DNA of 64,000 nucleotides, from positions 437,895-501,894 of the forward strand of contig MU004244.1 in the NCBI GenBank assembly GCA_010405405.1, given 5' to 3'. The notes under the pieces were generated by a model. The model had not been told where the DNA came from. It ran no database searches and worked only from the letters and a program-made list of their open reading frames with translations. This document shows positions 11,815 to 56,960 of the stretch, piece by piece. Each line of letters begins with the position of its first letter. Position 1 is the stretch's first letter. Origin of the DNA: Microthyrium microscopicum (Eukaryota). The translations under genes and the position numbers were made by a program.

Positions 11815-14800
11815 CTCCCCTTTAATAGTAGCGCAAATTATAATTTCTTTTTTATATTTAATAATACTAGTATATAATATAAGTTAATATTAGCTAAATA
11901 AGGCGCTACTAGTATATAACAAAAGTTAGTACTAGCTATAAATAAAACGTAGAGGTAAGCTATTAATATTTAGGCGTAGTTTTTAAGATCTATAAGTCTA
12001 AGGTCTCTTATAAAGTTATTATATTTAATTATAACTAGTGGCTTAGTAAGACTATTAGTAGTATTAGCTACTATTAGTACTTAGTTTATAATAATCTTAT
12101 CTTTAGCGACTTAATTATGAACGAAGTAGTATTAAATATTAATATGTTTTAATCTCTTGTAGAATTAAGGGTTCTTAGCTAAAGCTAATGCTCTATAGTT
12201 ATTACTATTAATAGTTATAGCTAATAGGCCCTTATAGCTAAAGGCCTTAAGCAAGCTTCGTAACTAGACGGCCTCTTTTATAGCTTTAGATTTAGTAATA
12301 TATTTAGCCTCGTAACTAGATAAAGCTACTATTGCTTAACGCTTTAAGCTCTAGCTAATAGCTATACCTCTAATTTTAAAGATATACCTACCTATTAATC
12401 TTTGCTTCTCTTTATTACTACCCTAGTTAGAGTTAGTCTAGCTAATAAGGTTTACCTCTTTACTACTATTCTTAATAACTAGTCTATAGTTTATAGTTCT
12501 TAAGAAGTATTTAAGGAGATATTTACTAGTAGCAATATAATGCTTATTAGGATTAGTAGAGAAGTAACTTAGAACTAATATAGTATAGTAAAGATTAGGC
12601 CTAGTATAGAGTATAAGATATATTATAGAGCCTATTAGTAATTAGTACTATTTAAGGTCCTTATTAGAGGCTTTATATCCTTTTAGAGCTAAGACTAGCT
12701 TATAGTTTTTAAGTATAGAAGTTTTAACTTCTTTATTAATACTATTAAAGTAGAAGTCTTTAATAATCTTCTTATAATAAGTACCTTAAGATATTATAAG
12801 CTATATACTATAAGTAAGGTTCTCTTTATAAATTTTGATGCTAAGATAGTAAGAAGCTTCTCTAAGGTTTATTATCTTAAACTTGGCTATAAGCTTTAAC
12901 TTAAGTATTTTAATAGCTTTAATGTATTCTTTAAAGATAAGGAAATTATTAATATAAATAGTAATAATAATGTTTATCTTATAATTAATAAATATATTTT
13001 CGTTATATTAATAGGAGATAAAGCTAAGTATAGCTAGAGCTTTTAATAAAGTAATTTACTAAATCTAGGGTACTTACTTAAGTCTATAAATAGCCTTATG
13101 AAGCTTAGCTACTATGCTAAGTTATTATTTATTAGGAGGAAGCTCTATATAGATATCTAGATAGTTACCTTTAGTATTAATATCTCTATAGAGAAATATA
13201 GTCTTTACGTCTATCTAGTAAATATGCTATCCTTAAAGTATTATTAAAGTAAAGAGTAGTCTCTAGCTTATTAATTTAATAATGAAAGTAAAGGTTTTAA
13301 AGTAATTAACTCTATAAGCTTATTTAAAGCTATAAGCAACCTAGCGTGCTTTTTAACGAATAATTTCCCTATTAGCGTTATACTTATATTTAAGAATATA
13401 ATAACTAGAAATAATATAGGTACTCTCTAGCTAAGGTACAACTTTCTATATACTATTCTTTTTAAGGAATAGGCATTTATTATTAATAACGCTTATCTAC
13501 TTATTAATATCTAGAGATTAGAGTATATAGTTATAGCTTTTTAGCTTAAGATAGTTGTAATCTTTTCTAAGTAAATAGAAGTTAGCTTGCTTAGTAATAA
13601 AGGCATTAGTAATTATTTAATATTTTTTAGCTATAGTAAGTATTATAATTTACTAAGTAATATCCTTAAATATAGTCTTAGACTAAGCTAGTTAAGGTTC
13701 CTAACTAAAGAGGGTAAGATAAGTATCTTCTTTATTATCTTAAATATAATAAATAAGTTCTCTATTATAGGTAACTATATTATTATAAAGAGGAGACTAA
13801 TTTATAATATTATTTTCTTCCTTAAAGTAGTCTATAGCTTTACGTTTTAAAGAATGCTTCTCCTTAAGAAAAGAAGAGAGTAACTTATTATAAAAATAAA
13901 GCTTATATAGGTTAGTAATAAGTATAGTATAGTCTATTTAGAGGATATTAAATATATACTAAGGGAAGTCTAATGTCTTTAGGAAGATATCTTCTTTAAA
14001 GTGTAAGTCTTAAATAATTTCTATAATCTTCTTATAGGTATTTTAGATATAGTATTAATTTAAGGAGATTTAAACTCTAAAACTAGCTCTATTATAGCTA
14101 AGTAGAAAGTATTTCTTAGACCTTAAGTTAGTCTTTATAAGTTATTTATAAGGAACTATCTTTTAGTATTAATAGCTAATAACTTTAAGGTTTCTTATAT
14201 TAGGCTTTTTACTAAAGAATTTAAAGTAAAAGGATTTGCTATTATTTAAACTTATTATAGTAATATTACTAAGGATAGTAGTGATGCTAATTATCTTTAT
14301 AAAGAGTATTAGTAGAAGATTTGTATAGTATAGCAAAGCTCTAGCAATATTACTAAGAGTCTATATACTTCTTTTAGAGACTCTATTTTGCTTAAGATTA
14401 TATAAAGCTATTAGTTTAGGGCAAATTCTATATTTACGCTATATAACGTCTATATTAACGTTATAAAACTCTAAACTATTATTATATTATATAATCTTTA
14501 CTTTAGTATTATATTCTTTCTTAACCTATATCTTCTATTCTTTAATAAAGAAAGGAATATTAGCTTTACTAGTAGTAAATTATACCTAGCGATAGTAAAA
14601 GTAGTTATTAGTAATAATAAGCTAGTAAAGTTTCTAGCCTTTACTACTAGTAGTAAAGTTAGTAAATAGACTACTAAGATCTAAGTAAACTCTTTTAAGT
14701 TTTCTTATAGCTCTATCTTTAGCTAGTAAAGAAATATTATTTCTTTATTAGCTAGCCTTTTAATAAGCCTAATATTCCCTAATATAGGTCTAAGTAAGTT

Positions 14801-17800
14801 TAATTTAACCCTTAAGGGTCTTACAAATATAGTTTTTACTAATATAGCTAAGTCGTTAATACTATAGCTAGGTAGGCACTGCCTATTCCTTAAGTATAAG
14901 AATAGTGTCTAGTAGTAGCTAATAAAGAGTATATAGCTATTAGGTAAGATAGCTAGTAATAGTAATAAGGGAGCTATTATCGTAAAGGATTTAAGCTATA
15001 GAGCCTTTAAACTATATACTAATAAAGGTCTCTAGGCTATTACGTATAAAAAGGAGAGTTCTTAAGGAGATAATATTAAATAAGAGTCTAGGGACGTAAG
15101 TAACGTTATTAAGAATGAATTACTTATTAATATAAACCTTATTTTTATTGTTAACTTAGGTAGAAATATAGGTAGTTCTAATGCCTATAATATTAACGCT
15201 ACTACTAAGTCTAGTTAGTTAACTATTTCTAGGTCCTTTAGAGGTAAAACTATTTTTAAACTATAAAAAATTATTAGTAATATAATAGGATAAGCTAAAG
15301 TTAAGTACCTAGCTTTTTTTTACCTTTATAGCATAGACTATTTAAATATCTTTATTAGTATTTATAGTAGAGAGAGTAATAGAGTTAATATATTTAGTAA
15401 CTTAGTTAATTATAATATAGTATAAATTTATCTTAAAGTTATTACCTTTATTATTAAAGGCTTTATTAGTAATATAGTTAACTTAACCTTATTAATTATT
15501 AAAGTTTTGCTTATTAATTTACTATTAATTGCGTTAAGCTTAATAAGGTAGGCTAAAAGAGTAATGTTACTAAGGACGACCCTATTTTAATTAATTTAAC
15601 TAAGAGTAGCCTTACTAAGGATAATTCTATAAGGATAAGGCTTCTTTAACGTTAAAGTTATTAGGCTTATTTATAAGTTTATAAGTATATTTCTTAATAA
15701 GCTTATTTATTTATTATCTCTTATTAAAGTAAGCTTTCTTAAGCTTAGTATTAGTAAGTTAATTAAAGTAACTATCTAGACTATTAAAGTTACTATAGGA
15801 TAACTACTTAAAATATTTTAAATATAACCTATTTTGTAACTTATTATAAGTAGTAAGGGTAATATTCGTTTCTTACTTTAAGTCTTCCTTAGTAACTACT
15901 ATATTAGTAATCTTATTAAAGTTAATAAGGAGTTTTTTAGCTATAGGATCTTAGTACTTCTTATTTTAATAGAGAGAGGTAACTATATTATTTAAAACTA
16001 TAAAAACGTTCTTTAGGAATAAGACGTTTTAGAAGTAGTTTAGTATCTCCTAACTTTTACTAAGGATATAAAAGTTATTCTTAAGTTTAAGGATACTATT
16101 ATAAAGAATAATTGCTAAACTATTTAGCTATTAGGTATAGTCTTAAAGCTTATTAAAGATTCTTTTAACGTAGGTAAAGCTAGATAGTTAGTAGTATATA
16201 GTAAGGAGTTTAAGGGCTTTTTAAGCGTTATTAAAGTTAATAATCTTTAACTTAACTTTATTATTAATAGCTTCTTAAAGAATTATATAGGCTTAGTAAT
16301 TAAAATAATGCTAGTAGTTCTTATTCCTTTTACTACTATTAAGGAGATAGGCCTCTAAGCTATTAAACTAGCCCTAGAGATTACTTTCCTTTATAATATT
16401 GTAGAAATAAGTTCTTTAAAGCTTCTAGTTTAGTAAGCTAATAAGGCGTTTATACTTTATTAATTAAATTGCCTTTTTAATAGACTTAGGAGTTAGCTTA
16501 GTCTTATTAATAGAGAGAACTTTAGAGGCGTTAGTTCTAGTTAGAGTAAATATACTAGTTAGAGTAGGTATGCTAAGATTAATAGCTATAAAGTAGCTAG
16601 TCTTAGGGCTTATTAAGCTAGTAGCCTTTAAGGTAAAGAGTTTAGTAGTAAGTTCCTTATAGATCTTCTTAGTTTAAGAGGTGAAGGCTTAATTAATAAG
16701 TTACTATATTAGTTCTAGATTTATTATAAACTTAGAATTAGGCTTAGCTTTGTTTGCTTTACTCTTCTATTTATTAGTATTAATTAGCTTAATATTATTT
16801 ATAGGGGCCTTTCTTTTATTATAAGTATTAGGAGCTATTAAGTTAGTAATAAGTTTTTCTAGTTAATTAATCTTGCTAGAGTTAGATATAGAAGATAAGG
16901 TATAGGATAATAATTTATTAACTTATAAATTTAAGAAGTTTAAGGAGTCTAAGGAATCTAAATTTAATAATAAGTCTATTAGATCCTCTATAGGAGTAGT
17001 AGCTTTTATACCCTTTACTAGAGGTGTTTTCCTCCTAAAGAGTTTGTCGTCTAACTTTTATAGAGATTAAGAGTCTTACTTTTTTCTTCTATTGTTTGCT
17101 CTAGGCTATTTATTGTTAGTATTATTATTATTATTAGTAAAGTATTTATCTAGTAGTTTTAATATTAATATATTATTAATAATAGTACTTCTAACTAAGG
17201 TGCTATTTAAGGGTTAATTAGATATAAGCTTAAGTTAGTTATACTTATTTGCGTCTTAAATTATTTCTACCTTAGATTTAGCTTACTCCTTTTCTTTATT
17301 AGTTTAATGGTAAGCCTTAGCTTTATAACGCTCGCTCTTAATATAGAGATTAGTAAAGTAGTTATTAGTAGTATTCTTAACCTTCTATTAAACTACGTTA
17401 TTATGTGTCTTCTTAATAGTGAGCTATGCTTTTATAGCTACTTTTGTAGCTTTCTTAGTAGCCTTTTAAGCCTTTTTAGTATCTTTGGTAAATTTATTAT
17501 TATTAAGGCGTTTTATTATCTTAATAGCTATATCTAGACGAAGGGATCTTACTAAAGAGTAACTTAATAATTAAAAGCAAAGAAAGAATAATAAAGTAAA
17601 GTCTATTTAATTTATAAAAAGTAGTATAGATAGGAATACTATCTACTAGCTCTCTATTTTACTTTGCTAAATAGTTTTTATACTTAAACTTTATAAGATT
17701 TTTTATCTTATCTTTAAGGACAAATTAATTTAGTAGAGTTTTTATCTTATAGGCTAATCTAGTAGAGTTTTTATCTTGCTAGTTAATTTAGTAAAGTTTT

Positions 17801-18259
17801 CCTCTTACTTTAGTTACATAGTAGTATTTAACTTACTAAGTTACTACAATGTAATACTTAGTATTTAGAGTTTTTCTCTTTTAATTAAATTTTTATTTAG
17901 AGTTTTCTTCTTATTAAGAGATAAAGCTTATTACTTAGTAATAATAGTAGTATTCTATACGTAGTTAGTAGGAACTAGCTTATAATAGGACTAAGAACTT
18001 AGTGGTTATATAAGGAGTATCCTATTTATATAGATAAAGAATTTTTTTTAGTATTCTATCTACCTTAGTAAGTAGTAAAACTTCTACTTTAATAGTAGAT
18101 ATTATAGCTAGCTAAGGTAAATTAATGCTTACTATTATAAGAGAAAGGATAGTAATTAAGGCTACTACTAGTTAGTAGTATTATTATAAAGGTATATTTA
18201 AATAATATAGCTTATAAAGAGAGTAGTAGTAGTAAACTACGTACTCTAGGCTTATAACC

Positions 18260-18412
18260 TATTAGAAGATTACTAAAAGGGATAAAGGTTTAGTAGTAGA
18301 ATATAAGATGAAATTTCACTAAGTCCTCAATTTAAAGATCTAGGGGCTGTCTACTACTTATACAATTTGTGCTGAGTTAGCATATCTTGATGTTGAACAA
18401 CATCTTCAAACA
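18260..18412 (-). repeat. copia 5' LTR (153 bp)
   Basis: Direct repeat of 11662-11814; retains terminal ..CAAACA followed by TSD CACAC. Confidence 0.93.
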
Positions 18413-20324
18413 CACACTTGAGCAGTCATTATTCTTAAAGTGGCGGAAACCAGCCGCAAGATACTACTCTGTGATACATTCTGCTCGAATCAACAGGCCC
18501 ACAGCTCCTCCTATTCATGGCATCCCCTGATGACTGCCCCAAGCATCTGCGATCTCACAGACAATCTCTCTTGTCAGCTGCTCCGTCGCTGTCATCTGCA
18601 CTCGCACTCTGGGCGATAGTGGTATTCTTTATAAGTTTGAAAGCGTCAAGTCTAGCCAGCCCGCCGAGCCATTTCTCGATTAGTCTCATTCGTTGATGAT
18701 GGCGATAACATGCTTCTGATGAAGTTGCATATGGCCTGGCGCCAATGTTACGGTCATCCTTGAGAAGATTGATAGTCTTCAAGGTAACCTTCATGCAAAA
18801 TATTACTTAATGTCTCAGTGACTGTGCAGTGTGCTGCTGCTTTCCATAAATTTAAGCCATTGTTGTACTCATGGCACTGCTGTGGCGAGGTACCAAACTG
18901 GTCCTATAGAACGCCAGTGACTTCAATATATCTCCTCTCTAAACCATAACACTGGACTTGAATTGTTAGGAAGGTGAAAGTCCCCCGTCTATTGCCCAGA
19001 TAAACCGAGTAAATAAACGGGAGACTGACAAGCTTCGAAGAAACAGAAGCAATGCTCCGGCTGATCAAGTTATCAAGAGACGCAATGCGCACTTGTCTAC
19101 GTAGACACTCCAGGTGGCCCTGAACTGAAGATGTCTATTGCTCAAGAGAATTGATCAGCCTTGCCACATCCACCTCCCAACTGCCCTCAAGGATGTGATT
19201 CTGTGTATCCGGAACCCCGGCATACCACTGGCCTCCTGACCAACGATATGAAGCGCTGCCTCTCACGCAGGATGTGGCGCCTCGAGGACCACTTTGAGGC
19301 GCGAAGAGAAAGAAGAAGAGATTGGATAGCTGGGGGGAAAACTGTTGAAGACTGTCGTGCCAACCGAATTAACCATTTCCCTCCATCGGTATTCCGGAGA
19401 CTTTGTTCGCCGTTCCTTTCATTGTTGAACAAGCAACAGGCAGCCCGTCAATAGGCGTCAACGCGGCAATTGGCATATCGCGTGTAGTGCGCCGGAGCTG
19501 GGCAAAGCTCAGAAATTCAGACCTCCTTGTTCTTCAGATTATACTTTGTCTCTACTACCTACCCCCGGGCAGCAGCAGTCGCTCAATCCGAATCGCTTCG
19601 CGAACACACAGTAACATGATACCTGGTTGAGCTGGCATCAGACCACGAATGCCTGGCGCGGCTTTCAATTTTTCGAATCACTGGGATATTGTGGACCACC
19701 TTGGCTGCAAGGAGGGCTGGAGTCTTGAACATACGACTCAGTAAACAGAGATATGCCCTCGATATCATGGCTGAGCGCGGGCGGTAGGAATTGTAGTAGG
19801 AAACCGGATGAATGGGCCAGATCTTAAATACCAAATTCCAGACACTGCGTAGCATCGCAGCACTTGACTAGGACGTCTATACCAATGGCTCAATCTTTAG
19901 AATCATGTCATTTTATGCTTTCGTGACGTATTGCTTATGCCTTGATTACTATAGAGTAGTCATCAGTCACTGGAGGCGAACCAGCGATGTACAATGGCAG
20001 CTTCAGTAGCGCCGGTATAGGTATCATCTGTAGCACGATGGAGGTCACTGAAGTTGTAAGAGAGCGAATTAAAATCATTTGGGTATCTTCATTGAGCAAT
20101 AACAATATTTGTACAAGACCCTCAACTGCCATTTCAACAAGACCTTTTTGATAATACAGTAAAACTCACCGTCCTCCTGATCACCTTATTCAAACAAGCC
20201 TCGCCCACTTATTCAACTAGGAAGAGAGTCCAAAGACGCCCAGCCTCTGTAGAATAAGTCCTGCGTCATCGCAGCTTCCGCACTGCAAAGCGCCCAAGAC
20301 ACACCAAACAGAAGGAAGCCACTC

Positions 20325-20575
20325 TGCAATAGACGACGCCTTGAGCTAAGGGAAAGTGCTTCACAGCGCAAACCCTCTGCAACGAGACATCTCCAGACAA
20401 GGCCCAAGAAAACACAGGCAACCGGGCAGGAAGGCAATACATGACACAAACATGTGCAATGGACGATGCCTTGAGCCAGGGAAAGTGCTTCATAGCGCAA
20501 ACCTTCTGGCAACAAGACATCTCCAGACAAGGCCCAAAACAAAAGACAACCCAGCAGAGAGGCAATACATGATAA
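20325..20575. repeat. 130-bp tandem duplication (about 2 copies) just downstream of the 1395-aa gene
   Basis: TGCAAT(A/G)GACGA(C/T)GCCTTGAGC..GGAAAGTGCTTCA..AGACATCTCCAGACAAGGCCCAA..AGGCAATACATGA begins at both 20325 and 20455. Confidence 0.85.
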
Positions 20576-20636
20576 AAACAGCAGCAACAAGCCAATGAAA
20601 ATCCTTTCTCCGACAACAATCCACCCCGATCTCTTT

Positions 20637-23600
20637 TCACAAGTCTAGTTGCGAGAACTCCTTCGTTTTTCGATACCAAGTGTGCTTTTTGATGAGCATC
20701 TTCTTTTTTTCCAAGCAATACAAATCGCGCCGCCGCTGTGCTTCTATCTCCGCCGTCGCAATAGTGTACAAGTCGCCAACTGAGACACCTATGTTGATAG
20801 CGGCCAAGGCTGTTTTGACTTCATCAGTGATGGTAGCACCGTTCTCGACCAGAAGTTTTGCGAATTTGGCTGTGAGCTCTTTCAGTTGTTTGCTTCGGTT
20901 CTGAGCAGCTTTTACTTTGAAATTGGCTTCGTTGAATGGGACAACAATGTCCCCGTGGCGAAAACCTACGCGAGCAAGCGCTATATCCCAGCGAATGGCA
21001 ACTTCAACCTCATCAGCATTTGCGTCGCCAGTTGGGATCAAGTTTGCGACACCCAGTTCTCCATTACCGAACACAGGACTCATGGCGTGCATTTTCTTGT
21101 CGTATATTAGCTTTTGCTTGGCCTTCTCAGCCTTCTCCTGCGCAGCCTTCTCACCCTCGGTTTCTTCTGAGACTCGAAGCTCTTTTACAAAACCAAAGGC
21201 GAAATTTTTGTTCGCAAATGTGTCATGATCCAATGGTTTGCTGAATTGATTGACTGGGCCGGTGAAGACTGAGGCCTCATTTTGAAAGCCGCCAAAGTCA
21301 AAAGCTTTGTTTGAAGATAGACCTTGATTAACCGGCTTGCTGGATAGATTGGCTGGGCCAGCGAAGACTGAAGCCTCCTTTTGAAAGCCGCCAAAGTCGA
21401 AGGTTTTGTTCAAAAATAGACCTTGATTAGCCGGCTCGCTGGATAGATTGACTTGGCCAGTAAACATTGGGCCCTCCTCTTGAAAGCCGCCAAAGCCAAA
21501 AGCTTTGTTCGCAGTGCTGTTGGAATCAACCGGTCCACTGGATTGATTGATTGAACCAGTAAAAGCCGAGCCTTGAAGCTCTTGAGCGCCACCAAATTTG
21601 AAAGCTCCATCTGAGAATAGAGCTGACTTAGCCGGTTTGTTGATTTGATTCATCGGGCTAGAGGCCGAGGCAGGATGATCTGGAAGACTTGACTCCGCTT
21701 GCTCTTGGTGTTGAGGCAATGGAGGCGCCGCTTCGGTTTCAACTTGAGTTTGTGCTTGATTGGCATTCTCCACAGTAACAGCTTCGTTTGAAGTTATAGG
21801 CGCAGTCTCTTGTGTTGCAATAGCTGCCTGGTCCTTCACTGATGTCTTCAAGACATTGTCCAGAGGTTGGAAATGACCATCGCGATCAATGTTCTCATGG
21901 GTTGAGACGTCTTGCTTCTTGTCTTCTTGAATCGGAAGATTCTGAGAATGAGCAGACGTGGGCTCAGAGGAGATAGCTGGCCCTGCCGCTGTTGCAGCTT
22001 GGCTTGCGATGACTCCTTCCACCGCATAATTGCGCATAATTGATCGATTGCCGTTTGATGTGCTTGCTGGGATGGACGAGTTGGAGGCAGCACGGATGTC
22101 AGGAACAGAGCCAGGAGTTTGGGTGGCAGCTAGTGGATGCCACTCAGAGTCTCCTTCCTTCTTAACTTTGAGCAATTCCAGTCGAAATGTGGTGATACCA
22201 GGGTGGTTTTCTAGCTCGAGATACGCCTCTGTACTGGTAACCTGCTTGAATTTACCTTGTGCGCCCTTATAAGGACCTTTGGCAAGCACTCGACACTTCA
22301 GTTTAGTAATGTCACCATGGAGGGCCAACTGCTCAGCAGCGAGTTGACTTGGAGATTTCTTAGGCTCATTTTGCTGTGCGTATCGTTGCTGGGAGAATGC
22401 CCGATGTTGTTGTTCTGCAGTTTGTTGATCTTCCAAGGACTTATTGTGACGAGTAATCTGTTCTTCCTGGGCTGTGGCTACTCCTTTTAAAAGAATCGCT
22501 TTGAGAAGACTCGGTTCTGCAGCCGAGAAGCGTCGATTTGGTAACTGCACTTGAGCTGTTTGACGTGCTCTCAACGGCTCAATGACTGGTGTCTCTGATT
22601 GAACAGCTGGCAAAGGAGAGGCTGCTGGTATAATTGAAGATGCTTCTTCATGATTGAAAGAGCTTGCTGAAGAAATTGGCGGGGCCTGTGAAGAAACCGG
22701 CAAGACGAGTGAAGGGACTGGTGAGCCTGATGCTGGTACAGAGCGCACGGAAGCTTCGTCATTTTTGTTGTTGACTTTCCGAGGGAGCACTGAGCCTTTG
22801 CCAGGTCGCTTACGCTGTGGTGAGACTTGCTGTAGTTTCTGTGAGGTGTCTGTGGTCTTTGGCACAGTAATCAAGGCATCAGTTTCCAGGGGTCGCTTAC
22901 GCTGAACTGGCTCTGAGTCACTAGGGCCAAGAGAAAGAGCGCTAAGCGAGCTTTCAAGAGATTGCAGGCTTTTGTGTAGCATTGTATCTTGATCAGTTGT
23001 TGAGGATTGGGACAAGTCATTGCGAGATGAAGATGACTTTGCAGCCAACTCAGCCTGAGAGTCATTTGTCATGGAGAGTACTTTAGAATCATCAAAAGTA
23101 TGTGAGGCGTCTTTGGGTTGAGAGTGTACTGCGGAGATGAGCGGGCCCGAGGCAGAGATTGATTTCTTCGTCTTTTGCTTAGAGACTGGCATGAAAACAT
23201 TCGAACCCTGCTTGGTTTTGTTTTGACCGCTTCGCTTGCTTTGTGGTGAGGCATGCTGTGCATTCTGTGCGGCGCTTGGAGTCTCTGACACTACTTTTGC
23301 AGCCGACAGAGCTTGGTCAAAGCCAGGCTTTGAGACGGAGGGTGGTGAAGACGAGGCTCCAGAAAGCGATGGTGTAGAGGGAGGCTCAGCTTTCGCGTCT
23401 TGGGAGGATGTGACCGGTGATTCTGAAGGGGAATTTCCGGCTCGAGTGCTAATATCAGATGTAGCCTTGCGTGATTTCTCTGACAGCAGTTTTCGATTGT
23501 CTGCTTCCAATCGAGTGATCGCAACTACCTGTTCGGCATTCTTGCTATTCATTTGATCATTCTTGCTTTTCAGTTCAGTGATCTCAGTTTCCTGATGGGC

Positions 23601-24883
23601 AGTGGTGCTGTTCAGCTGACCATTCTCGCATTTCAGTTCAGTGATCGTAATCTTCTGCTCAGCAATCTTGCTATTCAGTTGGCGATTATCGCTTTTCAGT
23701 TGAGTGATCACAAAATCCTGGTGGGCATCCGTGCTATTCAGCTGAGCATTCTTGCTGGCCAGTTGAGTGATTTCTTCTTCCTGACGGGCATTCGTGCTCT
23801 TCAATTGACGGTTATCGTTGTTCAGTTCAGCATTCGTGCCAGCCAGTTGAGTAATCTCTTCTTCCTGACAAGCATTCTTGCTATCCAGGTCACGATTCTC
23901 GCGTTCCAGCTGAGCATTCGTGCTATTCAGTTGAGAAATCTCTGCTTTTCTCCGGAAGTTCGCCATTTTTTGCATGGAGGTCAGGGCTGCTAGTTTGGCC
24001 CGCTCTGTATTTGATTTCGAAATTCTCTCTTCCAGTCGCTTGACATTCTTGTTCAGTTGCTTGACATCGTTTTCTTGTTCCTGGCGATCTTCTTTCCATT
24101 GCTTGCGTTCATCTTCCCATTGCTTGCGTTCATCTTCCCATTGCTTGCGTTCATTTTCCCATTTCTTGCAATCAACTTCGAGTTGTTTGCACTTCTCTTT
24201 CCAATGATCTTGTACTGGCTTGTGACTTCCCAGCTTGACATTCTCAAGGAAATCGGGCAAGGACTCTTCCTCAATCTCATCGCCACCATTTGAATATGGC
24301 AGGTGGTCTGGACGAAGATTGTTACGATAATGAGCCCCCAACGCCTTCAAACCGTACTTGGCGCAGAAGGAAAAGAAAATTGTGACAGCAAGTACAACCG
24401 CAATAGGCATAGCTTCCGTCTCCAACCACTGAAACAGTGACCATGGCTCTGGGCCAGGCTCTGACTCCAGGTCAGGCTTTGGCTCTGACTCGAGGTCAGG
24501 CTTCGGCTCTGACCAGCCTGGTTGCCATTTGTAGTCAGTCTCACCAGACCGACTGAATGGCACGGCCGTATTAGGCCAAGCCTGTGGAGATGCCAGCTCC
24601 ACCAGGCATATAGTCCAGTTGGAAGGAAGGACTGGGAGCGATGTTTCTGTCGCGTTGTTGGGAGGGAGGGAGGAGTTGGGAGGAATGGTGGGATAGAGAG
24701 GCGGGAATGGTTGGTACTTCTTGCAGTACGAAGTATGTTGCTCCGCAGAGCGCTGACAAATGGGAAAGCTGGCGACCCACAAGGCGGTCACGGCAGCGGC
24801 GGTTTGGACTGTGATATAAGTTAGCAACGCGCACATTGGGGGATATATTCTGACCAAATTAACTTACTGATGAGGTCGTGCAT
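20637..24883 (-). CDS. giant orphan single-pass membrane protein (about 1395 aa): Cys-pair N-terminus, TM, coiled coil, KOW-like motif, FxFG repeats
   Basis: Exon 1 24883-24868 (MHDLI), 59-nt intron 24867-24809 (GTAAGT..GCTAAC..CAG), then a 4.2-kb open frame. TM AMPIAVVLAVTIFFSFCA; heptad repeats; GPYKG KOW-like segment; five FxFG units. Confidence 0.8.
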
Positions 24884-25200
24884 GTCTCTCAGCTCTGCCT
24901 TTATAGGGCGAGAGCGCGATGACAATGCAGACGGAGATGACGATGGTTGTAGAGAGAAGAAAGTTGATGAAAAAATTCAAGTTGGAGGATTTGGAAGGGT
25001 GGTGGGGAAACTGAGGGAAGCTGAGGGAAGAAGATTAAGCTCCAGAAGAAGTGGGCTGAAGGCTAACTAGTAGGAATTGCCAATATGGGCAAGTGACTTG
25101 GGCGTCACTGCAACTGCCCAGAATAAGTGAACATTGAAGTGAGTTTTCAGGTTGTTGAGGCAGGAGTCCTGTACTTGGGAAGGCAGGAGTGACTTGAAGA

Positions 25201-25260
25201 GGGGAGGTGCATTGGGGAGGTGCATTGGGGAGGTGCAATGGGGAGGTGCGAGCCATGGGG
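25201..25260 (+). repeat. 13-bp G-rich tandem repeat (GGGGAGGTGCAWT) x about 4
   Basis: Directly visible; GGGG tracts at 25201, 25214, 25227, 25240 and 25257. Confidence 0.9.
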
Positions 25261-25889
25261 ATTACCTCCCACAAATGCATCTCGAACATAGTCACTGAGC
25301 CAAACCTCCATCACGTCACTACGGCGCCCATAATAGTAACTCTTTTCCTTGATAGCCGCTCCTTGAATATCAATTGCGAGCTTCATATTCACTTGCTTGA
25401 TAGGATGATTCTTTTGGGAAGGCCTTTTTCGAATGGACGTATATAGTCAGTGGCACATCTCAACGGGGAACCCTATTTATCGTGACTACATAATGTCCTG
25501 TTCTGTGCTCGTACTTTCTACTAAAGAAAGCTAAAATAAAGTCCAGTAGATTGTGGTTAGCAAAATTGGCAAGTAATCTCATGGTTGGGTGAAGTTAGAG
25601 TATAAGGCTGACGACAAGGCTGAAAAGGATCGTCAATTTCAGGGTAGCGAATAAGAGGGTCAACCATGAACGAAACACAACCATGACGACTCTTCAGCTT
25701 TTACTTATGAAAATAAATGATGTTAACATGCGATCCAATTTTTTGATAGTTCCGCCTCGACTGTAAGTACAAAAAACATTACTCAGGTACATAATTTACA
25801 AATTACATTACATAAAACAGAGCTCCAAGTGTTCTTAGACCCAAATTCCCGGGAGCGAGTAATCAACAGTCCAATTGCTTAGCATCCTA

Positions 25890-28800
25890 TCAACGCCCTT
25901 GCTGCTCGTGCCATTCTTCCAAATCATCGAGCATGCGTATCTCGCAAACATTATACCTCTCCTCGTCGTCGTGCCTCCTGCCATTCAATTCTCTTCCTCG
26001 GTTTATTGAGTCTTCAATTGCGATTTGATCGGCCGTGTGATCTTCACTTGTAATTACGCCGGCTACAAACAGTTCTGGGTCGCCAGGAATCAGGTAGGGA
26101 GTGATCTGATGTTCTCTGGCCATGCGAGCTTCTTCAGCCTCTTGTTTTGCCTTTCCAGCCTCTTGTTTAGCCTTTGCCACCTCTTTTGCCTTCTCTTCTG
26201 TCGCCGCTCCTTGTGGCTGCTTTTTCAATGCTCGTTTGGGGAGGGCGCGAACCTTTCGTTCTGCTAGTGGCGTTCCAGGTGCTGAGAAATGGCTTGTGCC
26301 AGAATCATTGTTCACCAAGGGCTGTTGTGGCACTGTCAAGGGAGGTAGTTGTGGGCGCGCGGTGGTTGAAGGATCATTAGGTCCACCTACTTCGTAGTAG
26401 TCCTCCTGTGAGTCCTCTGAAGTGTCTCCCTCAGCTATTGGCATTGGATGACTTTTGGGAGGACTTCCAGAGCTCTGCGGGCGTGTTGTCGGAACATAAA
26501 TCGGTCCCGTGGGTCGAGGAGGAACCGGGTTTGAAGCACGCCGCACGTCTGTCACAGGTCTCGCCCCATTATTACTAGAGGCTGGGGGGCCTTGGTACAT
26601 CGGGTTTCCTGTGGGTTGTTGATAGGTAGGCGGTTGGTAGGTAGGCTGCTGCGAGGATCCTCCAGCGGCCCAGCCAGAGCCCCTCGGGGTCAATGGATTT
26701 GGAAACAACCGGCTTCCTACATTTGGTTGATGACTAGATGGTTGTGCATATCCTCCAGGGTTCCAGCCAGAGGTCCTCGCGGGCAATGAGCCCAAAGCTG
26801 GTCGTCCGTATATGAAAGAGGTATCGGCAGCACGTCCGGGATTTGATAGTCCTGGAATTGAGTTTGATATATTGTTTCTGGTAGTTGATGGCGCTGCGAA
26901 TGGAGAGTTCACAGTTGGCGGTAGATTCCAGACTATTTCGATGTCGTCGATATCATCACTCGCGTTATGTGCCGGTTCCGGGCTGGGCATGAAGCGATCT
27001 TTATCCTTATCCTCATCATCAGAATATACTGCCGAGCCTGCAGTAGGTGAAAGGGGAGGACTCGGTTGGTAGGGTCTATTAGAGTCGTCATCCTCGTCTC
27101 TAGGAGGGAACACATCCTCGAACGTACCTTCAGAAGACTCGCTGTCTTCACCGCGAGTGATAGGCGGCTTTTCTTCTTGATCAGACTTAGCATCGTTTGA
27201 ATCAGATTCCTCCCATGGTGGTAGATCGTCAAATGCCTTTTTCTCATCAGAGTTATGAACGTCTTGGAGGAGGTCATCGTAAAACTGGTTTTGCTCTTCT
27301 GTCAAGGGTGGTGGTGATCGTTTGATATCTGCCGGGTTTTCTGCAGTTATATCATCTTCGAATTGAGCCCCTTGATATGTTTGCCCAGTCATTTCCGCGT
27401 CTTCAATACTACTTTTGCCCGTGTCAGGCCTAATGGAAGGCGCATTGGTCGTCGGCGGAGCAGTCATTTCCGTGTCTTCAATACTACTTTTGCCTGTGTC
27501 AGGCCTATTGGAAGGCGCATTGGTCGTCGGCGGAGCAGTCATTTCCGTGTCTTCAATACTACTTTTGCCTGTGTCAGGCCTATTGGAAGGCACATTGGTC
27601 GTCGGCGGGGCAGTCATTTCCGTGTCTTTAATACTGATGCCTGTGTTAGGCCTATTGGAAGGCACATTCTCTGTCCACGGGCTAGTCATGTCCGTGTCTA
27701 CGATACTTGTGCTTGAGCCAGGCCTATTAGAAGGCACATTGGTCGTCGGCGGAGCAGTCATTTCCGTGTCTTCAATCCTACTTTTGCTTGAGCCAGGCCT
27801 ATTGGAAGGCACATTGTTAGTCAACGGCCCAGTCATGTCCGTGTCTACAATACTTGTGCTTGAACCGGGCCTATTGGAAGGCACATTGTTAGTCAACGGG
27901 CCAGTCATGTCCGTGTCTACAATACTCGTACTCGAGCCAGGCCTTTTAGAAGACACATTGGTCGCCAACGGGGAAAGGGCGTCCATATCAACGTCTCCAT
28001 CGGAATCCCTGGCCAAGCGTGAATCTTCTTGGGTTCCAGGCACATTGGTATGTTCAGTGACATCTGCATCTCCATCGTCGTCTAATCCAGCACCAACATC
28101 CGTCATATCAATCTCCTTAATAGGCACGGAGCTTGTGAGACCACCTTTGACCATACCTGGACCAGCATCTGGCATATCAATCTCTCCAGGAAGCCTAGAG
28201 CTTGTGGCAGGCTTGATTTGTAGAGCCTTTTTCGTTGCTGTCGCAAATATGGCCCCAATTCCACTCAATGGTGGTGCACTGAGGATGGGACGAGTAGAGG
28301 TGTGAGGCGGCTCTGTATTTACAGGAAGCACAGGCCCAGTAGCTTCCGCACCTGGTCCGGGGCTGTCAGAGCCAGAATCAGAGCCAGAGTCAGATCCTCC
28401 ATCCTCGAAGTTGTCTTCATTATCATTGTTTGGATTTGACTGATGACTTTCAGAGCCGAATTTAGATCCTCCATCTTTGGAGGTGCCTTCATCATCATCC
28501 TGCGGACCATAGCCAGAACTAGATCCTTCATCCTCGGGGTTGTCAGAATCATGGCTTCCAGAGCCCGGCGGATTGAAGATCAAGGTCGGCTGTGCAGCAG
28601 GGGTTTGATGCGCAGTATCCAAATTCAGCTGAGTGAATCCGGTGAAATCAAATCCTTTGTTTTTGAAGATGCTTATACCAGCAATGCTGGTTGTTTCTGG
28701 ACCAGAAGCAGTGGAGGGGATTGTCGGTTGCGGCTCCTTCGGAGACTTGGGCACAGATTCTGGGCCTATAGAAGTGATTCCAGTAGGCTCAGGGATGGGT

Positions 28801-31220
28801 GAAGGTACAAGGTCGGTTATTTTTGTACCAGGAGCAGTAGAGGAGACTGTCGGTTGCGGCTCCCTCAGAGACTTGGGCACAAATTCTGGGCCTGGAGCAA
28901 TGATGCCGGTAGGCTCAGGGGTGGATGTCGGTACAATGGTTGTTTTTGTACTAAGAGCAGTGGGGTGATCAATCCCTTGCGGCTCCTTCGGAGACTCGGG
29001 CACATGTTCTGGGAATAGACAAGTGATACTGATAGGCTCATTGGCGGGTGCTACAATGTTGGGCGGATGTGGTTGCTGTCCATTCTCCCGAGGCATTCCT
29101 TCTTGTTCAGGCAGTGTTGGACCAGAAACTTCACCAGGCTCTGAAGATGCATTTTCAGGTTTTGTTTCCACAGTTAACCCTTGTTTGATCTGCTCATCAG
29201 AAGCTGCCTTGGTGGGTGATCTTGGTTGCGAAGTACGATTGGTATAAGATCGGCTCGTGCCTGAGCTCTCCCCTTGTACGTTTTTGGGGCGTCTATTTTC
29301 CTTCACGGAAAGTGCGGTTGCCTTTTTTAGAGCTGCCTGTTCTTCTGGACTTAAGACCTCTTTAATAGCTGCTTTATCGTCACTTTCGACTTCAGATTCC
29401 TCTTCAATCCCCTCCTCGGCTTTCTTGATTAGCTTAGATAGTTTCTGACCTTGTGGAGGATCAGCCCGCATTCGTCGGACATAACGTCTTTGTTCCAGCT
29501 CCCTCAGTTCGTTGGGAGAGAGTGGTTCGGCCCATTCCTCCGATGGTGGCCGAGTATCTGGTACCGGACGTTTTTCTTCGCTGGTGGTTTTGTATGCTTT
29601 AATGGTTTTATAGTATTCCACGAAGCGTGCTATTTCATCAAAGTCTACAGCCTCCCGGCGAGGTTTGTGGACTGGCTTTGGCTTACGCTTACGCACTTCG
29701 ACCTGGGTGGGCTCTTCGGCTTTCAAAGGTTTGGGCTCATACCTTTCAACTGGCATAGGCTTTTTGCCCTTGTCAAGTACAACCCTTCGGTCTCTGTTCT
29801 TGACAGTTCTGGTCCACCTACCGTGGCTCTCCTCAGCAGGGCGCAATTTTCTTCGAGAAGTCTTCTCACCCTCGGTATCTGGCTTGTTTGGGTTAACTGG
29901 AGATGGAGGAAGCGGAATACTAGCTGGATCTACCTCGGTATCTGGCTTGTTTGGGTTAACTGGAGATGGAGGAAGCGGAATGCTAGCTGGATCTACCTCG
30001 GATTCGTTTCTTGAGTCTGACGGCTGTGGTCGAGCGACTCGAAGAAATGCCCAACGGCACCATAGTGCGATGTACTGGAATGCTGCGATGAAATAGTGGA
30101 TGAGGGCATTGAATGAGGAAGCAGCGTATGAAGGTAATGATTTGAGACTGATTTTTGTCGAAATTGAATCTGGTTTGCCGCCATCCGAGTCCGAATCGGA
30201 GTCGCTACTACCCGCATCTGATTTTGGTGCACGACTATCACCATTCGAGTCCGAACTTGAGTTGCCATCTCCAGACATCGGCCTCAGCCTATCGAACTCG
30301 TTTCTAAGGCGAGGGTCTATAGTAGAGGTTCCATCCGGTGATGTGGGAGGAGTACGCGTATATCGAAAATCTCTATAATACAGATAGCCGGCTCTGAAGA
30401 TGGCAAATGGAACCGCGTATACAAGAAACAAGAATGCGCTCGCCAGACTTGCGACAAAATCTTCTACCCAGAAAGCTGCGATACCCGAGGCAGCCACGAG
30501 GCTTTCTACACGGTCGTATATCCACTCGTGTACCTGCCGATACAAGAGTCCTGGCATGCGGAATGCCCTCTTGCCATACTTGGGGGCAGTAGTAACAACT
30601 GGAATTGCGAAGCGGTAAACGATTCCTGGAATAAGTAATGCGCTCTTGAGATATTGTCCTAATGCGATGACCTTGCAGAGAAGGAACCACACAAAGTCGA
30701 AAAAAGCAATTAGGAAAGCTAATAGAAGTATAGTTGAAATGATGTTTCCAACAACTTGTTTTTTAGCTTTCAGAGATTTGCTGAACCATTCCGAAGATGA
30801 GCGATACAACCGCTCTATGTGACCAGGAGGCGAGGAGAACACAGCCACATCTGTGGTTTCGGTCCCACTGGGACTGGAAGGTTCTTTTGATGTGAAGTTC
30901 GTTTCAGTTCCAGTAGAGATTCCAGACTCCGTCTTATTGGAAGGTTCTTTTGATGTGTTATTCGTTCCAGCTCCAACAAAGATTCCAGACTCCGGCTCAT
31001 TGGAAGGTTTTATTGATGTGCTGTTCCTTCCAGTTCCAGTGGGGATTGAAGATTCAATGACTGGCTTTGGGGTGTACGCAATCGTCGTATGCAGAGCGAT
31101 TTGGATAGGAAGATGGACAAAATTTGTACAGTAAGGGGTCTCCTTTAGGACCTCAAGTTGACAAATTGGGAGGCTAATAAGCCATGCGGCCGCCAGTTGC
31201 CAAGCAGCGTAATGAATCAT
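25890..31220 (-). CDS. giant orphan membrane protein (1776 aa), repeat-rich and largely disordered; probable distant paralog of 20637-24883
   Basis: Uninterrupted 5.3-kb ORF from ATG 31220; signal-like N-terminus with SLPICQ..YC; N-glycosylation sequons before the first TM; 2-4 hydrophobic segments; several internal tandem repeats. Confidence 0.82.
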   Translation of the reverse strand: MIHYAAWQLAAAWLISLPICQLEVLKETPYCTNFVHLPIQIALHTTIAYTPKPVIESSIPTGTGRNSTSIKPSNEPESGIFVGAGTNNTSKEPSNKTESGISTGTETNFTSKEPSSPSGTETTDVAVFSSPPGHIERLYRSSSEWFSKSLKAKKQVVGNIISTILLLAFLIAFFDFVWFLLCKVIALGQYLKSALLIPGIVYRFAIPVVTTAPKYGKRAFRMPGLLYRQVHEWIYDRVESLVAASGIAAFWVEDFVASLASAFLFLVYAVPFAIFRAGYLYYRDFRYTRTPPTSPDGTSTIDPRLRNEFDRLRPMSGDGNSSSDSNGDSRAPKSDAGSSDSDSDSDGGKPDSISTKISLKSLPSYAASSFNALIHYFIAAFQYIALWCRWAFLRVARPQPSDSRNESEVDPASIPLPPSPVNPNKPDTEVDPASIPLPPSPVNPNKPDTEGEKTSRRKLRPAEESHGRWTRTVKNRDRRVVLDKGKKPMPVERYEPKPLKAEEPTQVEVRKRKPKPVHKPRREAVDFDEIARFVEYYKTIKAYKTTSEEKRPVPDTRPPSEEWAEPLSPNELRELEQRRYVRRMRADPPQGQKLSKLIKKAEEGIEEESEVESDDKAAIKEVLSPEEQAALKKATALSVKENRRPKNVQGESSGTSRSYTNRTSQPRSPTKAASDEQIKQGLTVETKPENASSEPGEVSGPTLPEQEGMPRENGQQPHPPNIVAPANEPISITCLFPEHVPESPKEPQGIDHPTALSTKTTIVPTSTPEPTGIIAPGPEFVPKSLREPQPTVSSTAPGTKITDLVPSPIPEPTGITSIGPESVPKSPKEPQPTIPSTASGPETTSIAGISIFKNKGFDFTGFTQLNLDTAHQTPAAQPTLIFNPPGSGSHDSDNPEDEGSSSGYGPQDDDEGTSKDGGSKFGSESHQSNPNNDNEDNFEDGGSDSGSDSGSDSPGPGAEATGPVLPVNTEPPHTSTRPILSAPPLSGIGAIFATATKKALQIKPATSSRLPGEIDMPDAGPGMVKGGLTSSVPIKEIDMTDVGAGLDDDGDADVTEHTNVPGTQEDSRLARDSDGDVDMDALSPLATNVSSKRPGSSTSIVDTDMTGPLTNNVPSNRPGSSTSIVDTDMTGPLTNNVPSNRPGSSKSRIEDTEMTAPPTTNVPSNRPGSSTSIVDTDMTSPWTENVPSNRPNTGISIKDTEMTAPPTTNVPSNRPDTGKSSIEDTEMTAPPTTNAPSNRPDTGKSSIEDTEMTAPPTTNAPSIRPDTGKSSIEDAEMTGQTYQGAQFEDDITAENPADIKRSPPPLTEEQNQFYDDLLQDVHNSDEKKAFDDLPPWEESDSNDAKSDQEEKPPITRGEDSESSEGTFEDVFPPRDEDDDSNRPYQPSPPLSPTAGSAVYSDDEDKDKDRFMPSPEPAHNASDDIDDIEIVWNLPPTVNSPFAAPSTTRNNISNSIPGLSNPGRAADTSFIYGRPALGSLPARTSGWNPGGYAQPSSHQPNVGSRLFPNPLTPRGSGWAAGGSSQQPTYQPPTYQQPTGNPMYQGPPASSNNGARPVTDVRRASNPVPPRPTGPIYVPTTRPQSSGSPPKSHPMPIAEGDTSEDSQEDYYEVGGPNDPSTTARPQLPPLTVPQQPLVNNDSGTSHFSAPGTPLAERKVRALPKRALKKQPQGAATEEKAKEVAKAKQEAGKAKQEAEEARMAREHQITPYLIPGDPELFVAGVITSEDHTADQIAIEDSINRGRELNGRRHDDEERYNVCEIRMLDDLEEWHEQQGR

Positions 31221-32255
31221 GACTGATGAATGATAACCAGAGCAGATTGAGAGGATAGCAGTGCTGTTGGATTATCAAATCAGAAGATGGTCGCAATGCT
31301 CGATGGGGGACAGGATGATGGCTTGAAGAGATGATTGTGGGAAGTGGTGTAGGCGAGTATGGGGAGTTGTGTAAATGAAACTGCTCCGGGCAGTAAGTGA
31401 GAGGGGTATCGAGACAATAGGCAAGAGCGAATGAATAGAATTTCAGGTGGTGTTTCCGCGACTGCTGTACTTGGACAGCTTCAAATTGGGCAAGAGGTCC
31501 AGCTTGCCACTAACTAATTAGACGTTTGATATCCGGCAACTTGCAAAGCCATACCTTTGTGTCTATAATATTGACAAAATAAATCATATGAAGAAACACG
31601 TTGTTCGGGAAATTTCATGGTATAAAGCTGAAAAGGTGAGAGAAAGTTATTGTATTCTTTTGTCTATAGAATCATAATGAAAAAAGAAGGACAGACAAGG
31701 CGCAGATAATTATTTTCGCTTAAGTTCAAGACAATGGTTATATAATTCCATGACATTTGGACTTTGTCTATCGGCTTCTCGCAGATACAAAGACATGAAG
31801 TTGGGCGATAAGGCTGAATGCAAGGCTGGGTCGATCGCCGAAACATGCTAGCGTCGAAGCGTGCCAGCAAGGATTGGGCCCTTGTCATCTAGATCAACCA
31901 ATCAAAATGCAGAACCTGGTCTAATTTTGGCCGTTCTTGGACCATATCGTTAAATGCATTAGATGAAATCCATGGGAAAGTATGAAGCGAAAGATGAGAT
32001 ATATACAAGATTCTCTCTGAAAGGAAATTATGCAAACATGAGTTCCTGCAGCTGTTTGCTCTGACGAACGACCAACGTGGGGGTGAACGTAATGCAGATT
32101 CCTCGGGTAGCAACGGAGCATTATTGCACCACCAGCCCACCATGTGCGACAAAGACTTTTGCCATCCTATTGATACAACCACTCCATACCCATTCGACTC
32201 TCTACAAACTTTACGAATCCTCTCATATTTCACGGAATCCGTCTGCGCCCTCATA

Positions 32256-54672: not shown

Positions 54673-56960
54673 ATGGCCGGGAAGCCCAAGGGGAAGTCTG
54701 GCAAAGCTCAGCAACGAGAGGAAGGACTAGAGAAAACAGACAACAATTTGCCACTAACATCATGGCCTCAAGTGCCTATGATCAATCAAAAGAACTACTA
54801 CACCGAATACCTCAAACGCGAAGACCAATACCTAGCCTACCGAACCCTACAAGAAGAGAACACAAATCGCATGGTCCGAGAAGCACGAGATAAAGATCGC
54901 GCATTAGCTCAAGGCAATGGAGTGCCCATGGCGAACGGCAATGGTGCCGCAGACAATGATGAGGACATGATGGACGTAGATGATTCTTCGGAAATTCATG
55001 GCTCCAAGATCATTGTCATTCACCCTGGTAGTCAAAATCTTCGCATAGGTTTCGCCAACGATGCCATACCAAAGACGGTACCTATGGTTGTTGCTCGGAG
55101 ATGGAAGGAGAACGAGTCTGAAGAGAATGGTGGTGAGCCTTTACCCAAGCGAGTCAAGATAGATGGCGAAGTTCCTGAGGAACCGGAGAAGCAGTTTGGC
55201 GAAGAAGTAAGACAGCTCCTTTAATTCTTAAATCCATACTGACCCATTCCAGTTTGCTTCAATGTGCAATACTCTCTCCGCGGACCTCAAAGCTCGATTA
55301 CGATACAAGAAGATCCGATTGATGCCAAACTCAAAGGAATTGGTGGTCAATTACAACCGAAGATCAACACCAGAGATGATCACAGAGCACAACGACCCAC
55401 ATAGGATCGAATGGACCGAGATTCCAGCCCGTAATCCCCCAGACTGTATCACCGGTGCAGCTGCTCTCCGAATACCTGAAAACTCAAAACCACGATACAA
55501 GCTTTTCTGGCCCATAAAAAACGGATGGCTAAACGAGAAGGATTATAAGCAAAAGAACATGGTCTTGAATGATTACTTCCTAGTCATTGAAGACGCTATG
55601 AAAAAAGAGCTCGGAGTGACCCGCAAGAAGGATTTGCAGCAATATAGCTGTGTCTTTGTCATACCAGATCTCTACGAAAAAGTACTTGTCCAAACCGCCC
55701 TAGAGGAGTTCATGCGAGACTTTGGCTTCAGGCGCATCTGCTTTATGCAAGAGTCTTTAGCTGCCAGCTTCGGCGCAAGCTACACCATGACGTGTATTGT
55801 CGATGTTGGCGCAGAAAAGACTTCAATATGCTGTGTTGAGGACGGCATGTGTATTGAGGATTCTCGTATCAACATGAAGTATGGCGGCCGAGATGTCACA
55901 GAATTCTACATCAAAAAGCTCATCCACTCACATTTTCCTTACTCCGATATCAACCTCAAGAGAAGATATGATTTTCTCCTGGCAGAGGAATTGAAGCAAA
56001 AGTTCCTCAGCATGAACGAAACCGATGTTGTTGGTAACACCTACGAATTCCATCTAAGAGCAGCTGGACAAGACACCCGCAAATACAGCTTCCGTGTCTA
56101 CGATGAAATCATACTTCCGGGAATAGTACGTATATTCAATTCGCATTTTTGACAGTCAACTAATAACTATCAAGGGGTATTTCGATCCAAGCAGATTCAA
56201 TTTTGAAGGCAAACTCGACGGCCGACGCTCCATAGTCGACCGCTCCTACGACCTCTACGATAACTCTCCCAACGACCCAACCTCCGCTGCGCAAGCTATG
56301 GTCCTCCAATGGGCCACCCAAAACATCCCCTCTGCCACCATCCAGGTCGCCGAATCCTCCACAAAGCCCACTGCTACTCCAGCCATTACCGCCACTCCCC
56401 AACGCGACCGGCCACTCAACCTCCTCAGCCGCCTGCAGGAAATGGATGGCACTCCACGATCTTCGGCAGCTAACTCGCCTGCCCCGGAAGGCACACCTCA
56501 ACCCCGGCAAGGCTCTCCCTCTGGTGATGCCACAGGCGCAAATGGTACACGCCCAGAACCCATCGACGACCGTCTGCGCATCGCGGAAGAAAGCGATCGC
56601 ATTTTGCCAATCATGCCCCTTGACGAAGCAATCATCGTGTCAATTCGGCAAGCGGCGCGCTCTGACGACCGCAAGATGCGTGACTTTCTCGGCGGTGTCA
56701 TGCTCGTTGGCGGTGGATGCAAGATGCCAGGCTTTAATACATTCTTGGAGGACAGACTACGCACGATATTGCCAGGAATGGCGAAGGAGATCATGGTGGG
56801 ATTGCCACCGCGGGAGCTGGATCAGCAATTGGTGGCATGGAAGGGAGGCAGTGTGTTTGGCCGACTGTCATCCAGTGGAAATGATAGTTGGGTTTATCAG
56901 AAGGAGTATGATATTTTGGGTAGTAAGTTGTTGGTGCAGAAACTCATGTTTGCGTATTAG
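54673..56960 (+). CDS. ARP8: INO80 complex actin-related protein Arp8
   Basis: INQKNYYTEYLKREDQ, KIIVIHPGSQNLRIG, VFVIPDLY, CIVDVGAEKTSICCVEDG, PPRELD..AWKGGSV; introns 55207-55252 and 56126-56174. Confidence 0.95.

Follow-up and report, generated by a model that had tools for sequence, protein, structure and literature searches.

POM121 combines a small lumenal N-terminus and one transmembrane (TM) segment with a large extralumenal tail that carries distal phenylalanine-glycine (FG) repeats, and its nuclear localization signal (NLS) region comprises four or five basic boxes with at least two bipartite NLSs (PMC4569319, PMC11289042). It has 24 FG dipeptides, 14 of them per 200 aa (PMC8311347), and is restricted to vertebrates, the pore membrane proteins (Poms) that anchor the nuclear pore complex being described as lineage-restricted (PMC2951903). 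Here we analyze a gene that a preliminary description likened to POM121. It lies on the minus strand of a 64,000-nucleotide stretch of the Microthyrium microscopicum genome (assembly GCA_010405405.1, contig MU004244.1, positions 437,895 to 501,894), hereafter the window, and encodes a putative membrane protein with five FxFG motifs and no assigned family, hereafter the orphan protein. Nucleotide positions are those of the window, and residue numbers refer to an open reading frame (ORF) of 1399 aa.

Several other described systems bear on the comparison. Import of the Heh2/Pom121 type is reported to require a disordered linker after the TM segment (PMC4569319). For membrane proteins of the nuclear envelope, among which LBR bears FGs, adding four FGs sped up movement in a Nup35-dependent manner, and the peripheral-channel route is given a limit of ~60 kDa (PMC3082195). 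A minimal FG domain has been defined as at least five FGs in 200 aa, a definition that 2,863 of 563,552 Swiss-Prot proteins (about 0.5%) fall under (PMC8311347). The KOW5 domain of the transcription factor Spt5 contributes to the RNA clamp located at the exit tunnel of RNA polymerase II (Pol II) (PMC9467590). In Neurospora, whose genome is subject to repeat-induced point mutation (RIP), NCU01135 and NCU04998 are chimeric, repeat-containing, lineage-specific genes (PMC11628664). Finally, the DFGGF motif of p56 (CCDC91) binds the gamma-ear (GAE) domains of GGA clathrin adaptors (PMC13581114).

Compared with these systems, the gene resembles a recently assembled patchwork more than a fungal counterpart of POM121. 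As its strongest finding, sequence comparison shows that residues 829-932 are derived from the genome's own Spt5, a segment that the preliminary description had overlooked together with a tandem paralog of the gene; both recast it as a chimeric orphan. When residues 773-1399 were compared with 1.84 billion protein representatives, only three scored E ≤ 0.001. The two best are Spt5 sequences aligning to residues 829-945, namely the Spt5 of this species (E = 1.6e-10) and a fragment of a related Spt5; the third, P0003 (E = 7.8e-4), is of low complexity and was rejected. The same segment was found in the own-genome search with E = 1e-16, and pairwise comparison with the own Spt5 gave 5e-18. Identity is 39% over 104 aa spanning KOW5 and the linker that precedes the CTR, and 25 of the 40 identical residues use identical codons, where 13.7 were expected (p = 1.5e-4). 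The donor region of Spt5 (L007:1462-1830) is itself unusually diverged from other fungi, matching only two of 856 candidates, and against solved Spt5 structures its E-value is only about 0.1. Since the KOW5 region of this Spt5 is lineage-diverged, the copy stems from this lineage. Because no Spt5 intron lies within the captured stretch, retro- and DNA-mediated capture cannot be told apart, and informative sites relative to two outgroup Spt5s are evenly split as to the time of capture (8 versus 8). No other captured piece was seen when residues 146-829 were searched against the own genome, where they matched only themselves (16 candidates).

The copy has evolved rapidly. Synonymous divergence (dS) from Spt5 is about 0.99 and shared, nonsynonymous divergence (dN) is 0.55 and mostly on the branch of the copy, and with two outgroup Spt5s the branch lengths are 0.97 for the copy and 0.18 for Spt5, so that the copy evolved about five times faster. 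Its mismatches are milder than in neutral simulations (mean BLOSUM -0.21 versus about -0.88; P ≤ 0.005 in 8 of 8 settings), with the Spt5 branch and the aligner accounting for part of this conservatism; a neutral copy stayed free of stop codons in 0-5% of cases across simulation settings. In a structural model built from four rows, three of them Spt5, the segment forms five strands with pLDDT 76-85 over the domain, the confidence being limited to the barrel, and the top matches in the PDB are Spt5 structures (7okx_Z and 5xog_W, rmsd 1.6 Å). The copy thus appears, in the model, to retain the KOW5 fold (PF23290) of its homolog, but it is devoid of the NGN domain, the other KOWs, and the CTR, is fused into a membrane protein, and scores below the Pfam cut-off. 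A limited literature search turned up no published Spt5 KOW domain anchored to a membrane, which argues only weakly that the arrangement is new.

The second component of the patchwork is the FxFG array. The five regularly spaced motifs reported in the preliminary description are all present in the minus-strand ORF, with the first phenylalanines at residues 1079, 1113, 1146, 1179, and 1212 (window positions 21602, 21500, 21401, 21302, and 21203), that is, at a spacing of 34, 33, 33, and 33 aa. Units 2-4 read NKxF[DG]FGGFQ followed by a second F-x-G. Such clustering is not expected from composition: none of 20,000 shuffles of the whole protein reached at least three FxFG in 140 aa, and among 20,000 shuffles of the repeat region none gave five and nine gave four. 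The regular period results from a tandem duplication at the DNA level, where a 99-bp period repeats 2.8 times with 83% matches. When the 99-bp units were compared without gaps, DNA identity was 72-79% among units 2-4 and 31-44% for pairs involving unit 1 or 5; the three central units are younger and the two outer ones older. The whole protein contains only seven FG dipeptides, all within its best 200 aa, and with polar spacers and a charged fraction of 0.15 the repeat region falls under the operational definition of an FG domain.

The aromatic motif may be under selection. Across units 2-4, seven F/G columns, comprising four core phenylalanines and three glycines, are invariant (proportions of nonsynonymous and synonymous differences, pN 0 and pS 0.31), and the other 26 columns are near neutral (pN 0.26, pS 0.31). 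The probability of this under neutral simulation is 0.0002-0.007, for columns that were picked after the fact and with three comparable units. When columns were selected by a majority of F/G, 7 of 9 were invariant versus 7 of 24 (p = 0.017). A six-codon pattern, F-[DEG]-F-x-G-F, built to admit the variant found in the neighboring gene, has 15 matches genome-wide compared with 19 for a control, and only four lie in open frames longer than 104 aa, three in the orphan gene and one in its neighbor; matches in short frames could be exons. A triple-FxFG pattern has four matches, of which three are in the orphan gene and the fourth is out of frame, so that by this pattern no other in-frame cluster offers itself as a nucleoporin source for the repeat; the nucleoporins of this genome were not retrieved. 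The repeat region searched against the own genome matched only itself (one candidate scored). A Pfam match to SPAR obtained with the isolated repeat region (28 bits, cut-off 27) fell to 18.7 bits with the whole protein and was dismissed as a repeat artefact.

Further evidence comes from the gene immediately upstream, which we regard as a well-supported tandem, highly diverged paralog on the basis of three colinear stretches, namely the PICQ..YC motif at the N-terminus, a single occurrence of the repeat motif, and a portion of the C-terminal domain. All three scored above every shuffled sequence (0/1000, 0/500, and 0/1000 shuffles, respectively), the PICQ..YC stretch reaching 65 compared with 23.7±4.6. 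The shared repeat motif is N-K-x-F-D-F-x-G-F, which does not preserve the FG dipeptide. Both genes are rich in internal duplications, with four tandem arrays in the orphan gene (24, 21, 42/63, and 99 bp) and at least five in the neighbor (63, 63, 126, 72-75, and 93 bp, and others), so that the pair carries about ten unrelated arrays. These data, taken from sequence, show that the orphan gene expanded through successive internal duplications and also captured part of another gene. The 72/75-bp array of the neighbor (7-8 copies of a Thr/Asp/Pro-rich unit, 27383-27973, minus strand) is overlapped by an antisense ORF of 290 aa (27433-28305) that is probably a shadow frame. An apparent likeness between the neighbor and the Spt5 CTR did not hold up (E = 0.24; one shared 5-mer versus 1.6 expected).

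The abundance of internal arrays suggests an alternative, that the FG array is functionless, an aromatic patch caught in one internal duplication of a fast-evolving orphan and an FxFG look-alike. The near-neutral spacers and the loss of significance of the selection test under looser column rules are consistent with this possibility, as is the number of Swiss-Prot proteins that fall under the FG definition (PMC8311347), and the comparable Neurospora genes showed no obvious knockout phenotype in the published account (PMC11628664). However, the motif is one of only three stretches recognizable between otherwise unalignable paralogs, and the four phenylalanines and three glycines of the chosen columns are unchanged in units 2-4. 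We consider a functionless array unlikely, while noting that the evidence for selection on the motif, including its survival in the paralog, is suggestive and not conclusive.

The C-terminal domain has one further, stand-alone relative, the 190-aa protein P0004, encoded about 225 kb away on the same contig (E = 6e-7). Its gene is oriented divergently from a BRR6/BRL1-family nuclear-envelope gene about 0.8 kb away (Pfam PF10104, E = 3.9e-24); the pair lies at L030:8689-9990 (minus strand) and L031:612-1208 (plus strand), about 681700-684200 of the contig, and the adjacency may be a coincidence. The structural model of the C-terminal domain (pLDDT 50; best match with Z 6.9 to generic helical hairpins) was uninformative.

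Outside this genome no homolog was identified. The C-terminal domain matched none of 159 candidates (lengths 97-310), and residues 1-230 none of 566 (lengths 769-2449). Two metagenome scans confirmed none of 597 and 129 pattern matches, the second having recovered no Spt5, an indication of low sensitivity. In the ESM Atlas no match to the C-terminal domain reached 0.9, and none was usable for P0004. The whole orphan protein has no Pfam or NCBIfam family above cut-off, and none was reported for the neighbor. Residues 231-772 and the neighbor were otherwise searched in the own 37-Mb genome, where residues 1-607 and the last 470 aa of the neighbor matched themselves. Exact look-ups of the ORF, of three truncations, and of the neighbor returned no entry in the protein collection, and, judging by title, no paper that mentions the species deals with this gene. 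To the extent of these searches, the absence of outside homologs and the segment from an unrelated host gene show a lineage-specific chimeric gene. Chimeric lineage-specific genes rich in repeats are a known class in RIP-active fungi, and this gene conforms to it. Like NCU01135 and NCU04998, it combines orphan status, long internal repeats, and chimeric origin with a RIP-active genome; here, however, an essential transcription factor served as the donor, and the recipient is a large membrane protein in which an aromatic motif has been amplified.

The repeats most likely face the cytosol or nucleoplasm rather than the lumen. Three acidic and no basic residues occur among the 15 preceding the TM segment, and four basic and one acidic among the 20 that follow it. 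The N-terminal loop has a higher density of N-glycosylation sequons than the tail, both in the orphan protein (3 in 112 aa versus 14 in 1239 aa) and in its neighbor (5 in 130 aa versus 7 in 1376 aa). Charge and sequon density therefore place the repeats in the predicted extralumenal part, provided that the first hydrophobic segment is a signal peptide; a lumenal location, which would have spoken against an FG protein, is not predicted. The single N-proximal TM segment of the preliminary description is found at residues 141-159, but a second, signal-peptide-like hydrophobic segment occupies the extreme N-terminus. Likewise, the basic clusters that it called NLS-like exist (QRKRP twice and KQKTKK), but they fit none of six consensus NLS patterns, and no five-residue window holds four K/R; a non-consensus NLS may be present.

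With a small lumenal head, one N-proximal TM segment, and a large extralumenal tail, all predicted, the protein shares the coarse outline of POM121, and that part of the original comparison stands. The rest of it does not: there is no homology, the FG content is seven in total and in the best 200 aa, compared with 24 and 14, no consensus NLS is present, a predicted coiled coil of roughly 250 aa starts soon after the TM segment, a KOW5 domain has been captured, and the single motif copy of the paralog has FT in place of FG. The resemblance is a weak one, in outline only, and the protein is not a member of the POM121 family. No similarity to nucleoporins was found in Pfam, in PDB sequences, or, for residues 773-1399, among the 1.84 billion representatives.

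These data also bear on the possibility of a convergent POM121-like or inner-nuclear-membrane FG protein, whose repeats would engage transport receptors or FG nucleoporins while its KOW5 copy would reach Pol II or nascent RNA. The layout, an FG density within the range of the FG domains of yeast Nup1 and human Nup62 (PMC8311347), the effect of four added FGs on membrane-protein movement (PMC3082195), the place of KOW5 in the Pol II clamp (PMC9467590), and the lineage restriction of anchoring Poms (PMC2951903) are in line with it, and the only in-frame triple-FxFG clusters found by the genome pattern are in this gene. LBR likewise has several extralumenal FGs and no strong NLS (PMC3082195). However, the tail of the orphan protein has a mass of 135 kDa, more than twice the cited ~60-kDa limit, and its FGs form a regular tandem array; import to the inner membrane is disfavored because the tail exceeds this limit (PMC3082195) and a consensus NLS is absent. 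The coiled coil takes the place of the disordered linker after the TM segment, the paralog has no FG, nucleoporin similarity is missing, and the gene is known from one genome. We regard such a protein as very unlikely. A convergent POM121-like adaptor for gene gating, in which the FG array and the KOW5 copy would together hold transcribing polymerase or nascent RNA at the pores or elsewhere on the nuclear envelope, seems highly improbable.

The motif also resembles a clathrin-adaptor signal. DFGGF, identical to the p56 motif (PMC13581114), occurs exactly in units 3 and 4 and could recruit the GAE domain of GGA or AP-1 gamma-ear, which would make the protein a cargo or tether of the trans-Golgi network or endosomes and not of the nuclear envelope. 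Units 2-4 and the paralog all retain the third phenylalanine of F-x-F-x-G-F, which FxFG does not need. A type-I protein with a coiled-coil stalk would be at home in the secretory pathway, and p56 likewise has a coiled coil. GAE ligands usually have acidic residues ahead of the motif, whereas here it is preceded by N-K-x-F. Moreover, two of the five units contain DFGGF, the paralog has DFTGF, units 1 and 5 are without the motif, the orphan protein is an integral membrane protein with no homology found to p56, and a captured nuclear KOW5 would be left unexplained. A GAE ligand seems improbable to us.

We tentatively favor, short of calling it probable, a lineage-specific chimeric membrane scaffold whose aromatic motif is functional and which resides in the endoplasmic reticulum or outer nuclear membrane. 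Such a protein would have a short lumenal head and would extend into the cytosol or nucleoplasm a 135-kDa tail comprising a coiled-coil stalk, a long disordered region, the KOW5 copy, the fivefold aromatic motif, and a small C-terminal domain. Through its phenylalanines, the ancestral NKxFDFxGF motif could dock in a pocket on a soluble partner, and amplification would add avidity; the KOW5 copy could add an RNA- or Pol II-type binding surface. Karyopherins would be the likeliest single class of partners, as docked visitors, and the protein would be neither a structural pore protein nor a part of the permeability barrier.

Several points weigh against this scaffold. The motif as a docking site, the identity of the partner, and the compartment are all inferred, the partner being a guess, and localization, binding, and even the existence of the protein are deduced from sequence. 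The intron, the coiled coil, the topology, and the KOW fold are predictions. That fold is not independent evidence, since the model leaned on the three Spt5 rows; Pfam KOW5 scores 19.2 bits with a cut-off of 27 (E = 0.00085), and the dN and dS values indicate at most weak constraint on the copy. The signal of selection on the motif hinges on the choice of columns among three comparable units: a rule admitting any F/G column gives 7 of 12 versus 7 of 21 (p = 0.15), and an any-F rule gives p = 0.19. In whole-protein BLASTP the orphan protein and its neighbor reach a best E of only 0.051, and the windows compared for paralogy were chosen by eye. Finally, no orthologs were found with which to gauge conservation across species.

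The features of the locus are summarized in Table 1. The 1399-aa frame (20637-24836, minus strand) is counted from an ATG inside the putative intron; translation probably begins at the ATG in position 24883.

Table 1. Features of the orphan gene, its paralog, and their flank (positions in the window)
Feature	Position	Strand	Remarks
Orphan membrane-protein gene	20637..24883	-	~1395 aa, type-I-like; predicted start 24883
First intron (putative), 59 nt	24809..24867	-	GTAAGT...GCTAAC...CAG; sequence signals only
Signal-peptide-like hydrophobic segment, then PICQ-x(8)-YC two-cysteine motif	24723..24808	-	motif common to neighbor
Pro/Ser/Thr-rich acidic stalk, probably lumenal	24417..24722	-	three N-glycosylation sequons, 24-bp tandem repeat
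TM segment, aa 141-159	24360..24416	-	acidic before, basic after; N-out/C-in predicted
Predicted coiled coil	23472..24233	-	from 21/42/63-bp tandem duplications; sub-threshold coiled-coil matches only
Basic cluster KQKTKK, aa 553	23163..23180	-	no consensus NLS match
Two QRKRP clusters, aa 645 and 674	22803..22904	-	no consensus NLS match
Copy of own Spt5 KOW5 and following linker, aa 829-932	22041..22352	-	matches Spt5 aa 722-823
Five-unit tandem array	21186..21620	-	99-102 bp units, FxFG core in each
C-terminal domain, probably helical	20652..21119	-	common to P0004, partly to neighbor
Tandem, highly diverged paralog	25890..31220	-	1776 aa; upstream neighbor; PICQ..YC motif, hydrophobic segments, internal arrays
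Single motif copy of paralog, NKGFDFTGF	28635..28661	-	no FG
RIP-mutated AT-rich block flanking the gene pair	12001..18300	n/a	

The edge of the RIP block is ~2.3 kb from the orphan ORF, and a second AT-rich block with the RIP signature lies at 38-49 kb of the window. The signature is absent from the gene pair, and the RIP index of the orphan gene is negative. Ordinary conserved genes surround the pair: by Pfam, the window contains two actin-family genes (1289-3060, minus strand, and 54673-56152, plus strand) and RING-v, YL1_C, PALP-family, CENP-H, anoctamin, esterase, and Lys/Orn monooxygenase genes. Just 3' of the stop codon of the orphan gene there is a direct repeat of ~129 bp in two copies (20330-20590), 75-91% alike in parts. 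A 13-bp tandem repeat of 3.8 copies, G-rich on the plus strand, lies between the paralogs at 25201-25249, some 320-370 bp 5' of the predicted start. Rfam gave no matches in 18000-32200. At the edge of the RIP block, 18314-18412 corresponds to a 124-nt contig with a depth of about 17,000 and 7 differences in 99 nt, an abundant repeat-related sequence with no Rfam match. This contig belongs to a run guessed to be RNA, which was not used as evidence; of its nine contigs, at least six lie in the orphan gene or its 3' flank (21203-21375 covers repeats 4-5, and 21864-22100 crosses one end of the Spt5 piece), at least one in the neighbor, and one at 18314-18412, with no joints.

The significance of these observations is limited in that only one genome is known to carry the gene, whose function is putative. 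The setting is a RIP-active genome, where duplications usually get destroyed. The captured KOW5 is the part likely to surprise specialists. With one motif copy in the paralog and five in the orphan gene, the two offer a natural comparison bearing on the de novo origin of FG arrays and a possible gain of transport-receptor binding. If the modules work, the locus would be a traceable case of a new membrane scaffold put together by combining a domain of a transcription factor with a linear motif that has been amplified.

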